From positions 498,361 to 562,360 of the forward strand of contig CAZAZU010000001.1 in NCBI GenBank assembly GCA_964490105.1: a stretch of 64,000 bases of DNA, given 5' to 3'. A model generated the notes under the pieces. The model saw only the letters and a program-made list of their open reading frames with translations, was not told the DNA's origin and did no database searches. The DNA is from an uncultured Gammaproteobacteria bacterium. Lineage in GTDB: Bacteria > Patescibacteriota > Microgenomatia > Levybacterales > UBA12049. Made by a program: the position numbers and the translations under genes. Each line of letters starts with the position of its first letter. The first letter of the stretch is position 1. Positions 33,674 through 39,396 of the stretch are shown here, piece by piece.

Positions 33674-34101
33674 ATATTTTCTATTTCAATCTCTCTTTTA
33701 TTTTCGTCTTTATAAACAAATTTAATTTTGTAACCTTTTTTTGGATTAAAATTTTTTAATTTTTCAGCCCACTCTATAATAGTTACACTTTTGGGATTTG
33801 AAACAAACTCTGAGATTCCAAGTTTTTCTAAATTATTCTCTCCTTCAATTCGATATAAATCAATGTGATTTAAATTATTAAATTTTTCTGAATCAACTTC
33901 ATGATTTCTAACCAGAACAAAAGTTGGAGATAAAATTCTATCTTTAATTTTCAGTCCTTTTGCTATTCCCTGAACAAATGTGGTTTTTCCTGCACCTAAA
34001 TCCCCAGTCAGCAGTACGACATCTCCGTCTTCAAGCTCACCAGCAAAATCTTCGCCTAGCTTAATTGTTTCAGAATCGCTATTTGTTAAATAATTTTTCA
34101 T
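33670..34101 (-). CDS. tsaE: tRNA t6A biosynthesis ATPase TsaE (YjeE)
   Basis: P-loop 'LLTGDLGAGKTTFVQGIAKGL'. 143 aa. Confidence 0.8.
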   Translation of the reverse strand: MKNYLTNSDSETIKLGEDFAGELEDGDVVLLTGDLGAGKTTFVQGIAKGLKIKDRILSPTFVLVRNHEVDSEKFNNLNHIDLYRIEGENNLEKLGISEFVSNPKSVTIIEWAEKLKNFNPKKGYKIKFVYKDENKREIEIENI

Positions 34102-34924
34102 AAATTTCTTCTATGCTTATATATTTTAAACTAAAAGCTATTGCTCCTGCTAAAATTAGCAAGACTCCTCCGAAAATACTTACTACTGGGAATTTTCTAT
34201 CCGCTGCACCCAAAACCTCAGTTTTACCCGAAACTTCCGGCGTAATTGTTAAATTTCTAATAGTCGTATAGTTACTCGTCTTAAAAGCCTGCGCTATTTT
34301 ACCAGAATTATCATTGTTTGACGAAGTTCTAGTTGGAATTACTGAAACCGTAGATGCAATTGAAATAATTCTTGCTGGTGTGGGAGTTTTAGTTGGCAGG
34401 TTCGTGGCTGCTTTTGAAGCCTGAGGTGCCTTAGTTGGAGTAGGAGTTTTTGAAGGAGTAGGTGTTGGCGGAGTAAAAACAGATGATGAATTATTAGAAG
34501 AACCTTTTGAAGGAGAACTAAAAACTGTCCAATTAGATGCGCCATCCGTAATTCTACCTGCTGATTGATTTACATCTGGAGCGATTAGACCTCCTTGATT
34601 TCCATAAGTGATCTGATCAATTGAAGAATTATCAGAAATCAATACTAATTTTATATAGTCTCCTCCATTATTTAATTTATTCGCCCAATCAAAAACCATA
34701 AAGCTCTGAGGCATCAAGTTCCCTGATAAATCTAATTTATTATTTTCAGTCGAATCTCTTATTCTAAATGCTGAAAGATCAATGGGAGTAGTGTCTGGGT
34801 TATAAATTTCTATCCAATCGTCAGATGTACTAGAAGAAAATTCATTAATCACGGGAGAAGCGAATACAACAGACGGGAAGAAACTAGTTATGACTAAACA
34901 GATAATAAAAATCTGCTTTTTCAT
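34079..34924 (-). CDS. secreted lamin-tail-domain (LTD) protein with P/T-rich linker and C-terminal TM anchor
   Basis: Signal peptide. LTD core 'VINEFSSSTSDDWIEIYNPDTTPIDLSAFRIRD'. 'PPTPTPSKTPTPTKAP' linker. C-terminal hydrophobic helix. Confidence 0.6.
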   Translation of the reverse strand: MKKQIFIICLVITSFFPSVVFASPVINEFSSSTSDDWIEIYNPDTTPIDLSAFRIRDSTENNKLDLSGNLMPQSFMVFDWANKLNNGGDYIKLVLISDNSSIDQITYGNQGGLIAPDVNQSAGRITDGASNWTVFSSPSKGSSNNSSSVFTPPTPTPSKTPTPTKAPQASKAATNLPTKTPTPARIISIASTVSVIPTRTSSNNDNSGKIAQAFKTSNYTTIRNLTITPEVSGKTEVLGAADRKFPVVSIFGGVLLILAGAIAFSLKYISIEEIYEKLFNK

Positions 34925-34930
34925 TTGGTT

Positions 34931-36079
34931 TTAGGGTATATGCCAATAAAGACTAACTGTTCCATTCTTGTGATCCACTATTATTCCTTTTCCAAGTGAT
35001 CCGTTATAACTGCAAGTCGCGCTTGTCGCATATGCTTCTCCTGATTCCATGGCCCTAATAGGTGTTCCAAACGGATTTGCCAAATCAAGCCCTGTGTGGG
35101 TTCCAAGAAAATAAACTTCTCCATACCATGTGGTAACATTTCCGGGATAGCCGGGAACAGGCTGCTGATACGCTGAATTCTCCATGTATGGTTTTGGATC
35201 CACTCTATTTCCAATTACTCTATTATTCTGAACACTAGCGTTAACATAAACCTCGAAGTGTAGATGCGGTCCGGTAGAGCATCCGCTTGATCCAACTCCT
35301 GCAATTATATCTCCTTTATTTACCGGGCCAATTTTTGCATTAATATTTCCTAAGGCAATATTAATAGAAGCAGCATCTGCTTTAAGGCGAGCTAAAAGCT
35401 CCTGGAATTTGGCTTCATCATTTTTAGTTACAGCTAAAAGCTGCTCTTTCTGTGCCTTCTCAGTATCAAGTTGAGTTTGATAGCTAACAAGCTCTGCATT
35501 TAGCTGTTCAATTTTTGCTTTTTTATCTTCAAAAATATCTTTCTGATTAGAGTAATCATTCCTTGCTTGGACAGTATCATAAATTAATCTTTTATCATGA
35601 GCTTGGGCTATTCTTAAGTAATTAGCTTTTTTAACAAAGTCTTCAACATTTGAGGAAGTTAATAACATTTGAAATTGGGACGTGCTTCCGACTATGTAAG
35701 TTTCTTTAATCCTATTTATTAGTATTTCTGACAAACTATCCAGGGAATCTTCAAGTTTTACAATTTTCTTATCGGCTGTATCTATATCCAAAGTAAGATC
35801 TGAAATCTGAGCACGAGCTGAGTCAATCTTAAGCTGAGTTAATTTTATTTGATTATCAATAACGCCGATTTGAGAAGAAAGTGTTTTCTCCTCACCTTGA
35901 AGCTGGGAAATTTTTGCCTGCGTCTCATCAATTTGCCTTAAGATTTCAGCTTGGTTTTTTGATTGACCGGAAGTGGGAGTAGGGGTCTGCGCAATTGCAG
36001 TAATTCTGAAAACAAAACCAAGGGAAACAAAAATAAAGATGGCTAAAATTAAGTATGGTAATAACGTTTTGAATTTCAT
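34931..36079 (-). CDS. coiled-coil M23 (LytM) family peptidase, EnvC/PcsB-like partner of FtsEX; M23 motifs in permuted order
   Basis: N-terminal TM plus about 230 aa of coiled coil. The catalytic motifs occur in the order HxH 'GCSTGPHLHFEV', then HxxxD 'HTGLDLANPFGTPIRA', then 'GIIVDHKNGTVSLYWHI'. The ORF stops 4 aa after the last motif. Confidence 0.7.
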   Translation of the reverse strand: MKFKTLLPYLILAIFIFVSLGFVFRITAIAQTPTPTSGQSKNQAEILRQIDETQAKISQLQGEEKTLSSQIGVIDNQIKLTQLKIDSARAQISDLTLDIDTADKKIVKLEDSLDSLSEILINRIKETYIVGSTSQFQMLLTSSNVEDFVKKANYLRIAQAHDKRLIYDTVQARNDYSNQKDIFEDKKAKIEQLNAELVSYQTQLDTEKAQKEQLLAVTKNDEAKFQELLARLKADAASINIALGNINAKIGPVNKGDIIAGVGSSGCSTGPHLHFEVYVNASVQNNRVIGNRVDPKPYMENSAYQQPVPGYPGNVTTWYGEVYFLGTHTGLDLANPFGTPIRAMESGEAYATSATCSYNGSLGKGIIVDHKNGTVSLYWHIP

Positions 36080-36110: not shown

Positions 36111-36977
36111 CTATTTTAAATATCTTAAAACTGCGAGGTAACTGGAGAATGCACCAAGTATTATCGCGACCACTGCCTCAGCTGCTAAAAGCTCAAGTAA
36201 AAACACTGGGGAAATTGGAAGAACGGGAATTCCTTTTAGAAAAGATGAAAGATATGGAGTTACATAAAAAAGTGCTCCAATTGAAATTAACCAGCCCAAT
36301 AGTGCTCCCACCAAACCATAAAAAACTCCTTCTAAAATAAATGGCCACCTTATATACCAGCTTCCAGCTCCAATTAATCGCATCGTTTCTATGTCTGATT
36401 TTTTCTGGGATATTTTTATTCCTATGATCGTCACCATAATAAAGATTGAAACCATAGAAAGAATTACGACCACCGCAAGTCCTATTTTCCTTAGTGCACT
36501 TGTCCAGGAACTTAAAGTCGAAACAACATCTTTTTGGAAAACCACCTCCTGAACAATTGTAGATTTCTTAAGAGTATCTGAAACTAAAGCTAAATCTTCG
36601 ATCTTATATGTGGCGATTTCTAAAGATGCGGGCAAAATCTCGGCTGTTACTAAATCCAATAAGAGCGGGTCATCTTTATTTTGTTCTTTATAGATTCTTA
36701 AAGCTTCCTCTTTTGATATAAATTTTACCTCTGAAATAAGTCCAGATTCTTTTAAGGAATTCCCCAATTCTTCAATATCAGCCTGCTTAGCTTCGTCTCT
36801 AAAAAAAGCTGTCACCTGAGGTTTAGATTCGAAATAATCAACAATCCTAGTTGATCCAAAAATGATAAGTGCAAAAATTGAAAATGCTAAAAAGGTTAGC
36901 ATCATCACAAATATCGCAGCGACAGCTTGGTACGGAGATCTTCTGATGTTGCGCCATGTTGTACTAAGTGCTTTCAT
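36111..36977 (-). CDS. ftsX: cell division permease FtsX
   Basis: 4 TM segments with a large first extracytoplasmic loop. It lies immediately downstream of ftsE with a 4-bp overlap. Confidence 0.8.
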   Translation of the reverse strand: MKALSTTWRNIRRSPYQAVAAIFVMMLTFLAFSIFALIIFGSTRIVDYFESKPQVTAFFRDEAKQADIEELGNSLKESGLISEVKFISKEEALRIYKEQNKDDPLLLDLVTAEILPASLEIATYKIEDLALVSDTLKKSTIVQEVVFQKDVVSTLSSWTSALRKIGLAVVVILSMVSIFIMVTIIGIKISQKKSDIETMRLIGAGSWYIRWPFILEGVFYGLVGALLGWLISIGALFYVTPYLSSFLKGIPVLPISPVFLLELLAAEAVVAIILGAFSSYLAVLRYLK

Positions 36978-37783
36978 TTTAATGCCTCCTCAAAGTCATC
37001 AGTCTTAACTTCCTTATCATTATTATTCTCAACTTTTTCTTCTTCACCAGAATTCTGCTTTACAGAATCTTTCTTCTCATCAGCTTCTCTTTTATTTTCG
37101 TGATGCTCTTTTGACTTATGACCCTTTTTATCATTTACCATTTCTCCTTTGTTAAGCTCAATTACCCTCTTGTTAAGTTTTTTTATAATCTCACTATTAT
37201 GCGTTGCCATCACTACCGTAGTTCCTTTTTCATTAATATCAGATAAAAGTTTTACAATTTCCCAGGAAGTTGCATCATCCAGATTACCTGTCGGCTCATC
37301 TGCTAAGAGAATTTCAGGAGACAGAATAAGAGCTCTGGCAATAGCAGCTCTTTGGAGTTCTCCTCCCGAAAGCTGAACCGGAAATTTATCTTTGTGTTCG
37401 AGTATTCCTACCTGGTTCAAGATCTCCATAGCTCGTGTTACTGCATCTTTTTTCTTTGTTCCAATTACTTCAAGGGGAAGTGTTGTGTTTTCAAGAATCG
37501 TTCTATCATGAAGAAGTTTTAGATCTTGGAAAATAACTCCTATTTTTTTTCGAAGCTCCGGAACCTTTCTCCCAGGAAGCTTTACAACATCCCAACTATT
37601 TACAACGACTTTTCCTTGACTTGGAAGCATTTCTCGAATTAAAAGTCTAAAAATTGTAGTTTTTCCAGATCCAGTAGGTCCTATTAGAAATACAAACTCA
37701 CCTTTTTCAACCGAAAACGAGACGTCGGATATTGCAAAAACGCCTGTACCAAATTTTTTTGAAACATTTTCAAGGCTAATCAT
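36974..37783 (-). CDS. ftsE: cell division ATP-binding protein FtsE, with K/E-rich C-terminal tail
   Basis: Walker A 'LIGPTGSGKTT', signature 'LSGGELQRAAIARAL' and Walker B 'LLADEPTGNLD'. There is an unusual 50-aa charged tail. Confidence 0.85.
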   Translation of the reverse strand: MISLENVSKKFGTGVFAISDVSFSVEKGEFVFLIGPTGSGKTTIFRLLIREMLPSQGKVVVNSWDVVKLPGRKVPELRKKIGVIFQDLKLLHDRTILENTTLPLEVIGTKKKDAVTRAMEILNQVGILEHKDKFPVQLSGGELQRAAIARALILSPEILLADEPTGNLDDATSWEIVKLLSDINEKGTTVVMATHNSEIIKKLNKRVIELNKGEMVNDKKGHKSKEHHENKREADEKKDSVKQNSGEEEKVENNNDKEVKTDDFEEALK

Positions 37784-37807: not shown

Positions 37808-38263
37808 TTAAAGAACTTCTACTCTTCCAACATCCATTAACCAGCCTGCATGTTGGGCTTTTTGAGTCTGGCCCCACACTTTAATTTTTTTACCTTTTAC
37901 AAGAGACAAATCGACAGAGGAAGAGGTGAGATAAACATACTGACTTTCTCCGCCTGGTCTCTCAAGATGATACTGACCTTCACCTTCAATTCCTCCCTCT
38001 CTCAAGATTCCTTCTGCTGTATCTTTGAAAGTTTTTGTATCATTGGATCCCATGGCCGTTCCTTTTGTGACCTGGGATGAATCAGTTACTTCTTTAGTGG
38101 GTTCAAGACTCGTAGCTGTGCCTTTAGCAATTAAGAATCCGCTACCCGCTCCTAAAAGCGTCATAACAACCACAACTACTGCTATCATCATTAAGGGAGA
38201 TTTACTTGGTTTTGAATCAAATTGTTGCACTAATTCTTCCTCTGTTTTCTTATCTTTTTCCAT
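37808..38263 (-). CDS. hypothetical membrane-anchored protein
   Basis: Single TM 'LMMIAVVVVVMTLLGAGSGFLIA' followed by a soluble domain. No motif recognised. Confidence 0.4.
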   Translation of the reverse strand: MEKDKKTEEELVQQFDSKPSKSPLMMIAVVVVVMTLLGAGSGFLIAKGTATSLEPTKEVTDSSQVTKGTAMGSNDTKTFKDTAEGILREGGIEGEGQYHLERPGGESQYVYLTSSSVDLSLVKGKKIKVWGQTQKAQHAGWLMDVGRVEVL

Positions 38264-38391: not shown

Positions 38392-39396
38392 TTACAAACT
38401 GCGGAGTTCTGCTTCAATAAATTTATCAATATTTCCGTCCAAAACTCCCTGCGTATCCGAAGTTTCATAGAGAGTTCTAAGATCTTTTACCATTTTATAT
38501 GGATGCAAAACATAACTTCTAATTTGATTCCCCCAGCCCGGTGTTTTATATCCGCCTTTTAAGGCTGCTTCATTTTTCTTTCTTTCTTCTTCCTGCAAAA
38601 ACCATAGCTTTCCAACAAGAAGCTTCATCGCATATTCTCTATTTTTACCCTGATATCTTTCTGAATGAGCAGTTACTACTAGTCCCGTGGGCTTATGCTT
38701 AAGACGAACCGCAGTACTGACCTTATTTACATTTTGCCCACCGTGTCCACCTGATCTATAAAAATCCCATTCAACATCTTCTTCTTTTATTTGAATCGCT
38801 CCAGCATCTTCAATTTGAGGAATAACCTCTACCAGAGCAAACGAGGTTTGACGAAGGTTGTCTGCGTTAAATGGAGACTGCCTAACCAATCTGTGTACAC
38901 CTGCCTCAAGCTTTAAAAGACCATATGCAAATTGTCCATCTACTAAAAAAGTTATACTTTTAAGCCCTGCTTCTTCCCCTGGAGTCTCATCAATTGTTTC
39001 AAGTGAAAATCCCTTGAGCTCTGCATACCGTGAGTACATTCTATAAAGCATTTGCGTCCAGTCCATTGCTTCAACTCCACCCTGACCAGCATGGATTGAA
39101 ACAATTGCCGGAGATTTATCAAAATCACCTGAAAAATAAAGTAAATGCTCAAGTTCTCCTAAAACCACCTCTAGTTCATCAAATTTTTCCTGCCTAAGTA
39201 ACTCCATAATTTGTCTTGCAGATTCTATTTCTTTCTGAAGACTTGCCATTTCCTTCATTTTTTCAGTGGCTCTTTGAGGATCTTTCCAGAAATCTGGCAT
39301 CATAGATTCACCTTCTATATGCTTAATGGCTATTTCTTTTTCAGTTAAGTTAATTTTTTGAAGAACTTTTTCTGCTCTCCCTTTAATTTCATCCAT
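38392..39396 (-). CDS. prfB: peptide chain release factor 2, no programmed frameshift
   Basis: RF2-specific 'SPF', 'GGQNVNK' and the C-terminal GGQ domain. The ORF is contiguous. The called ATG is the terminal ATG of MITE copy B. An internal Met start cannot be excluded. Confidence 0.8.

Follow-up and report, generated by a model that had tools for sequence, protein, structure and literature searches.

A naturally circularly permuted M23 domain in a probable FtsEX-linked peptidoglycan hydrolase of Levybacteria-type Microgenomates

The window analyzed here is a DNA stretch of 64,000 nucleotides (contig CAZAZU010000001.1 of assembly GCA_964490105.1, positions 498,361 to 562,360). On its minus strand, directly after ftsE and ftsX, lies a gene for a protein of 382 residues in which an N-terminal hydrophobic segment and a long coiled coil precede a C-terminal peptidase domain of the M23 (LytM) family. 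An earlier reading made from the letters alone (below, the sequence-only reading) had placed the gene at 34931-36079 in this position, and the list of open reading frames (ORFs) together with Pfam bears this out. The M23 domain is an exact natural circular permutation, opened two residues past the central catalytic histidine H380. The gene and its parts, with residue numbers referring to the protein, are as follows.

34931..36079, minus strand: hydrolase gene, 382 residues, uninterrupted frame in the ORF list, stop codon at 34931-34933

35990..36079, minus strand: residues 1-30, export signal or membrane anchor (MKFK, about 20 hydrophobic residues, then AIA-Q)

35354..35965, minus strand: residues 39-242, coiled coil, from the secondary structure predicted by AlphaFold2 (AF2)

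35180..35353, minus strand: residues 243-300, HxH half of M23, C-terminal in canonical chains but first here (by alignment to the C-terminal part of those chains)

35159..35179, minus strand: residues 300-306, junction ENSAYQQ, from the re-permuted alignment to gp16 and zoocin A

34934..35161, minus strand: residues 307-382, canonical N-terminal half of M23, placed last (Pfam profile positions 2-52 correspond to residues 327-381)

The full-length AF2 model has a mean predicted local distance difference test score (pLDDT) of 83 and an all-beta C-terminal domain. The N-terminus, which the sequence-only reading took for a transmembrane segment, is indeed hydrophobic and is modeled as a helix (residues 7-25) followed by a disordered stretch (28-36), but it ends in AIA-Q, so that a cleavable signal peptide is equally possible and a membrane anchor is not certain. 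The coiled-coil helices are predicted at residues 39-62, 67-130, 135-141 and 145-242. The last of them leads through a connection of three residues, with no helical segment in between, into strand 246-253, which is the strand that canonically follows the catalytic-His strand.

The half of the M23 domain that comes first contains GSSGCSTGPHLHFE, with H272 and H274 (codons 35258-35266), and also C267. The half that comes last contains H328xxxD332 (codons 35084-35098), D369-H370 and H380 (34940-34942), and closes with a terminal H-I-P. The protein consequently ends two residues past the central His (LYWH-IP-stop) and not four residues past the motif, as had been noted from the letters. The zinc ligands of an M23 peptidase (H328, D332 and H274) and its catalytic histidines (H272 and H380) are all in place. 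The junction links the former C-terminus (ending DPKPYM299) to the former N-terminal lead (beginning Y304QQPVPG); the HxH half effectively ends at M299, E300 is the first junction residue, and in the re-permuted alignment only about four junction residues (ENSA) have no canonical counterpart.

To our knowledge, the order of motifs is HxxxD, central His, HxH in all described members of M23. In the window protein it is HxH, HxxxD, central His, as the sequence-only reading had it and as Pfam, phmmer against the PDB and tblastn agree. The Pfam M23 profile scores 65.3 bits (cut-off 28.7) in two stretches, of which residues 327-381 match profile positions 2-52. By phmmer, residues 298-381 align to the N-terminal part of canonical M23 chains in the PDB and residues 246-299 to their C-terminal part. 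Of 15 tblastn queries, 13 canonical M23 proteins matched the domain, all 13 in swapped order and most as two separate pieces. Re-joining residues 301-382 and 236-300 in silico, in that order, gave one Pfam M23 stretch covering profile positions 2-94 of 96 at 73.5 bits, and the re-joined sequence aligned in single stretches to gp16 (9m7n, 779-910), zoocin A (17-146), lysostaphin and LytM. The swapped alignments and the single stretch obtained after re-joining together establish the exact circular permutation. Since the canonical linear order is not kept, we class the domain as a homologous but circularly permuted variant of M23. The AF2 model of the domain alone is confident (pLDDT 92.3, predicted template modeling score (pTM) 0.88) and exhibits the all-beta strand pattern expected for M23.

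In SCOP, LytM belongs to the barrel-sandwich folds of the 'duplicated hybrid motif' type. Weak Pfam matches of M23 domains to the barrel-sandwich families Biotin_lipoyl and RnfC agree with this class, and a fold built by internal duplication should withstand having its halves exchanged.

The permuted arrangement is not confined to the window. From 5.8 billion proteins, 1628 relatives were retrieved, and a scan of GTDB species representatives found that 216 species genomes encode one. Among the 120 best homologues all 115 full-length matches are permuted, down to 47% identity, and end in YWH followed by I, L, M or V and then P or L; they come from Levy-, Woese-, Roizman- and Curtissbacteria. 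In a domain search against 1.84 billion representatives at 50% identity, about 45 of the 150 best clusters were permuted. The nearest locus, 97% identical, belongs to a metagenome-assembled genome (MAG) of Candidatus Levyibacteriota, and those of 80 fetched records that carry an informative title are all Microgenomates/Patescibacteria. Motif order was HxH, HxxxD, central His in 75 of 83 fetched loci; the other eight fall outside the strict motif pattern, two of them visibly shortened by contig ends. The stop codon follows exactly two residues after the central His in every one of the 75 scorable loci. In an alignment of 59 diverse sequences H272, H274, H328, D332 and H380 are invariant, and so are C267, D369 and H370.

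The sequence-only reading had left two explanations standing, namely that the LytM fold is naturally permuted or that the domain is degenerate or chimeric, and had proposed an alignment of orthologues as a check on the assembly. Relatives keep the permuted order, which speaks against a local mis-assembly, and the permutation is supported by homologue order, C-terminal end, invariant residues, the re-joined domain and AF2. A degenerate or chimeric domain is rejected, because order and stop are conserved and the catalytic residues are invariant. Nor is there practically any chance left that mis-assembly, a chimeric contig or a frameshift scrambled the M23 domain: nothing beyond the unusual order itself suggests it, whereas hundreds of assemblies, made independently in different projects, share the order and the stop position, the frame is open throughout and all catalytic residues are conserved. 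The comparative data refute such an artefact.

A pair of cysteines, C267 (35279-35281) and C356 (35012-35014), one in each half of the domain, is present in 154 of 185 permuted sequences, and the first is never found without the second. None of 118 canonical sequences has the first cysteine, which stands invariant before STGPH in the family of the window protein. The two cysteines co-occur and are specific to a clade, and they probably form a disulfide linking the two halves of the domain.

The permuted domain also occurs in other settings. A second permuted subfamily with a coiled coil ends in LYAHLR, is devoid of the Cys pair and is likewise located after prfB-ftsE-ftsX. In two of its loci (L085, 6001-8468, and L086, 1320-3834) the permuted gene is followed by a coiled-coil M23 gene of canonical order and by ctpB; permuted and canonical paralogues thus stand side by side there. 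In short exported proteins of about 210-260 residues the permuted domain lies behind a Pro-rich or low-complexity linker, with no coiled coil. Such short forms (P0141, P0166, P0209 and P0420) come from Woyke- and Beckwithbacteria, one record being labelled Nanoarchaeia, and one of them, P0209, is a degenerate member that has lost the HxH motif.

A neighbor-joining (NJ) tree was built from canonical M23 domains and from the permuted domains after re-joining. Of its 32 permuted sequences 31 cluster, with P0159 placed elsewhere, and the clade with the Cys pair has strong support (193 of 200 bootstraps). The breakpoint is shared, which favors a single origin of the permutation, and the sequences compared are suggestive of one. 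The kind of intermediate that a route by duplication and truncation would need is viable, since tandem M23-M23 proteins occur in nature. The tandem M23-M23 proteins found, which ranked high in the search of cluster representatives, were considered as ancestors and rejected; they belong to the BlaR1-type M56 sensors of KSB1, Bacteroidota and Firmicutes, whose architecture is unrelated.

The hydrolase gene belongs to a tight row of genes, all on the minus strand, in which tsaE, tsaC and tsaB follow the last gene listed here.

38392-39396, minus strand: prfB

37808..38263, minus strand: gene for a 151-residue protein with a single transmembrane segment, between prfB and ftsE

36974..37783, minus strand: ftsE (Pfam ABC_tran, 2.5e-33; synteny), overlapping ftsX by 4 nt

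36111..36977, minus strand: ftsX (Pfam FtsX_ECD, 2.5e-16, and FtsX, 7.7e-13), 31 nt upstream of the hydrolase gene

34079..34924, minus strand: gene for an exported Lamin-tail-domain (LTD) protein (Pfam LTD, 5.1e-9), starting 6 nt past the hydrolase stop

Upstream DNA of 1 kb or more is available for 74 related loci. In 69 of them, down to about 40% identity, the hydrolase gene comes immediately after ftsX, and 65 loci keep the full row of prfB, the gene for the 151-residue protein, ftsE, ftsX and hydrolase. The sole exception to this synteny is a permuted homologue with 41% identity (L052, 1780-2919), where no ftsX was found in the 1.8 kb upstream. In four loci (L012, L013, L015 and L071) an insert of 1.3 kb separates ftsX from the permuted M23 gene. 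In L013 (2724-3947) a paralogue of 407 residues combines a nearly identical coiled coil of PcsB type with a C-terminal Cys-peptidase domain, Peptidase_C39_2. With nearly the same coiled coil here paired with a Cys-peptidase domain, it is evidently a shared module, and FtsEX in genomes with the extra paralogue may serve two hydrolases that share one docking module.

The structure searches point in the same direction. With the full-length model as query, the best Foldseek matches in the PDB are EnvC chains, 8tzl_E from the V. cholerae FtsE/FtsX/EnvC complex and 6tpi_A bound to the periplasmic domain of FtsX; RipA, RipC (in FtsEX/RipC complexes) and PcsB follow at lower rank. Many homologues carry precomputed CC_PcsB matches at the curated level. 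The EnvC/PcsB-like context proposed in the sequence-only reading is thus upheld, both by the ftsE-ftsX genes upstream and by these fold matches, and the coiled coil (residues 39-242) is presumed to be the FtsX-docking module.

Neighboring genes could of course be transcribed together for no functional reason. In that case the protein would be an ordinary secreted M23 endopeptidase that acts independently of FtsEX and uses its coiled coil for oligomerization or spacing. The operon does carry the unrelated genes prfB, tsaE, tsaC and tsaB, compact genomes of the Candidate Phyla Radiation (CPR) have long mixed operons, and the link to FtsX is drawn from gene context and fold likeness. We nevertheless find this explanation improbable, given that the place right after ftsX is kept in the 69 loci and also by the second, divergent permuted subfamily, that proven FtsX partners have similar coiled coils, and that a coiled-coil paralogue with another hydrolase domain is inserted at the same spot.

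In known FtsEX systems the coiled coil of the partner protein binds between the two FtsX extracellular domains, and ATP-driven movement compresses or shifts it, thereby freeing the C-terminal domain (PMC11627006). EnvC (E. coli, V. cholerae and P. aeruginosa; 6TPI, 8TZL) resembles the window protein in being exported, in its long antiparallel coiled coil, in its C-terminal LytM/M23-type domain and in its tie to FtsEX. The LytM domain of EnvC, kept in check by a 'restraining arm', is devoid of zinc ligands and works by activating two amidases, AmiA and AmiB (PMC11627006). It is of canonical order, whereas the window protein is permuted and keeps all catalytic residues. For the latter AF2 predicts no separate arm segment between coiled coil and domain, though a coiled-coil helix may cover the groove that the arm helices occupy in EnvC. 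The degenerate LytM domain without zinc ligands that marks EnvC proper is therefore not what is found here. PcsB (S. pneumoniae), CwlO (B. subtilis) and RipC (M. tuberculosis) are hydrolases themselves (PMC11627006), as is predicted for the window protein, but they are Cys peptidases with CHAP or NlpC/P60 domains while the window protein is a zinc-type M23 peptidase; the C39-like Levybacteria paralogue in L013 is their closer analogue.

It is against this background that an EnvC-type role has to be considered, in which the permuted LytM domain would be a non-enzymatic, FtsEX-controlled activator of a separate amidase or hydrolase, like EnvC and DipM. EnvC chains are the best structural matches of the full-length model, NCBIfam EnvC matches weakly over the coiled coil, some members are named 'septal ring factor EnvC' by the Joint Genome Institute (JGI), and LytM factors are commonly non-catalytic (PMC11627006). 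EnvC and DipM, however, have no zinc ligands, and here the three ligands and the two catalytic histidines are all invariant (59 sequences, 75 loci); purifying selection on the full catalytic set argues for catalysis, and the conserved neighborhood holds no amidase gene. We regard such a regulator as very unlikely. The NCBIfam EnvC match itself reaches 29 bits against a cut-off of 270 and covers residues 42-239, that is, coiled coil only.

With every catalytic residue invariant, the direct reading is that of a zinc-dependent endopeptidase, and the M23 domain is predicted, from its residues, to be a working enzyme, unlike that of EnvC. We therefore propose that the window gene encodes an FtsEX-driven, naturally permuted and catalytically active peptidoglycan endopeptidase of a Levybacteria-type Microgenomates (CPR) bacterium, a reading to which we assign a probability of roughly 0.7. 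According to this proposal the N-terminal signal or anchor would export the hydrolase, and the long antiparallel coiled coil would dock onto the FtsX dimer, between its extracellular domains, as those of EnvC, PcsB, CwlO and RipC do. ATP binding and hydrolysis by FtsE would be transmitted through the coiled coil and would switch on the C-terminal M23 domain, which would then cleave peptide cross-links of peptidoglycan at the division site. With the permutation, the coiled coil would no longer be attached at the far N-terminal edge of the domain but at the rim of the active site, so that movement of the coiled coil could act directly on the catalytic center. Coupling at this rim, and no longer at the distal edge, is suggested by the model, in which helix 145-242 enters the strand after the catalytic-His strand, and by the C-terminus, which lies two residues past H380. 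C-terminal extensions also appear to be selected against, as all 75 of 75 loci have their stop at this one position.

Several observations weigh against this proposal. The Pfam CC_PcsB match of the window protein, over residues 106-168, scores 17.5 bits and stays below the curated cut-off of 27, and gene adjacency falls short of proving a physical complex with FtsX. When the domain-only model was compared with the PDB by Foldseek, the 50 best matches included no M23 chain and all had E values above 0.4. An aligner that depends on sequence order is expected to be weak on a permutant, yet matches to half-domains were absent as well, and the M23-like three-dimensional fold accordingly rests on sequence homology. 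Finally, the cluster of permuted domains in the NJ tree appears in 47 of 200 bootstraps, which is weak for a single origin.

The short junction between the halves, of about four to seven residues, bears on yet another explanation, namely that the halves complement each other across the two chains of a coiled-coil dimer and form an active site in the oligomer only. Assembly in trans is possible for circular permutants and for split domains, and coiled-coil hydrolases such as PcsB dimerize, with their catalytic domains held by the partner chain (PMC11627006). On the other side, the single-chain AF2 domain is compact and confident (pTM as given above), the short secreted forms P0141 and P0166 have the permuted domain without any coiled coil, and the junction has the length that canonical N- and C-terminal segments would need if the termini are adjacent. 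There is, in our judgment, very little chance of such a domain-swapped assembly.

The permutation might itself be, instead of a neutral rearrangement, an adaptive rewiring of FtsEX mechanotransmission that gates the zinc site, with the domain, stapled by the disulfide of its clade, spreading thereafter in Microgenomates to other architectures, including the secreted short forms. ATP-driven compression or shift of the coiled coil would gate the zinc site because the last helix is fused directly to the strand that comes after the catalytic His, only two residues of the chain being left beyond that His. This idea is tentative, and we consider it rather unlikely; if true, the hydrolase would be switched with no restraining arm involved, a kind of control that none of EnvC, PcsB and RipC shows.

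Two groups of canonical M23 proteins are useful for comparison. Coiled-coil M23 proteins of canonical order (P0307, from GCA_030628575.1, and P0316 and P0322 from Oscillibacter) share the length of about 390-410 residues and the combination of coiled coil and active M23 domain, and the gene for P0307 even has the same place behind ftsE-ftsX in its own, different genome. Along the coiled coil and the HxxxD half, these proteins and the window protein are collinear; in contrast, their HxH half is C-terminal, whereas in the window protein it lies between coiled coil and HxxxD half. LytM, lysostaphin, zoocin A and gp16 (2B44, 4QP5, 5KVP, 9M7N) have the homologous domain with HxxxD, central His and HxH, to which the re-joined sequence aligns end to end, but they differ in the order of the halves and have neither a coiled coil nor a link to FtsEX.

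Literature searches found natural circular permutation for NlpC/P60 and none for M23/LytM. The permuted NlpC/P60 families, LRAT-like and YaeF/poxvirus G6R, are described by Anantharaman & Aravind (2003), as cited in PMC6403190. They are a precedent in that a peptidoglycan-hydrolase catalytic domain has, there too, the order of its catalytic residues naturally swapped, but with the fold and chemistry of papain-like Cys peptidases and not of M23. The literature searches also brought up no account of the FtsEX partners of CPR bacteria. The permuted family is without an NCBIfam model, and source annotations read 'peptidase M23', 'CwlO-like' or 'EnvC'. No earlier description of the M23 fold in a naturally permuted form turned up in the searchable literature.

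M23/LytM domains are among the best-studied modules of peptidoglycan hydrolases and their regulators and have been engineered as antibacterial enzymes. The permuted family indicates that the fold tolerates new termini right after the catalytic-His strand and that about four residues are enough to connect the canonical termini; both points are usable in enzyme engineering. It also provides a probable FtsEX-controlled division hydrolase for a large uncultured CPR class and, with the attachment point moved to the rim of the active site, a natural experiment on the coupling of coiled coil and catalytic domain. Permuted members are easily misjudged as degenerate, because profile and structure searches that depend on order split the domain or miss it. 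While the proposed function sits within a well-understood framework, an M23 domain that is permuted and yet, to judge by its residues, catalytically intact would be surprising to enzyme specialists.

Similar domains may possibly exist in virion proteins of cyanophages. In a viral structure library, Foldseek matched the domain-only model over its full length to three predicted structures only: A0A510E7V3_3 (E 1.4e-5, TM-score 0.56), H6WFX6 of cyanophage S-TIM5, and P60 gp33. In Synechococcus phage P60 (NC_003390.2; L084, 25363-25776) the C-terminus of gp33 reads GSTGPHLD, then GVDFATPDG, then YAFVHGTVPNA and stop. It has the same permuted order without the catalytic residues, and homologues occur in S-CBP1 and DSL-LC07. 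At 0.3 bits with the family hidden Markov model, gp33 shows no significant sequence similarity to the CPR proteins. Among 50,697 phage genomes, tblastn with the domain returned half-domain matches to canonical M23 only and no record covering at least 80% of the query, and a scan of IMG/VR gave nothing relevant.

Within the 64-kb window no second M23 gene was found by tblastn with 15 queries. Almost every related locus has, in the interval from prfB to ftsE, a gene for a counterpart of the 151-residue protein; this protein has no Pfam family and gives a weak FliL-like match in NCBIfam (E 0.0025), and it may be an unrecognized accessory of the FtsEX module. The gene that starts 6 nt past the hydrolase stop has, as the sequence-only reading said, a signal-like N-terminus of its own, and its LTD product further comprises a linker rich in Thr, Pro and Ser and a C-terminal transmembrane segment. 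LTD genes lie downstream of the hydrolase gene in about one third of the related loci, and the synteny on this side is partly conserved.

Many of the GTDB-representative MAGs with the operon (L005-L015 and others) are titled 'uncultured Gammaproteobacteria bacterium', which looks like a placeholder or an erroneous label.

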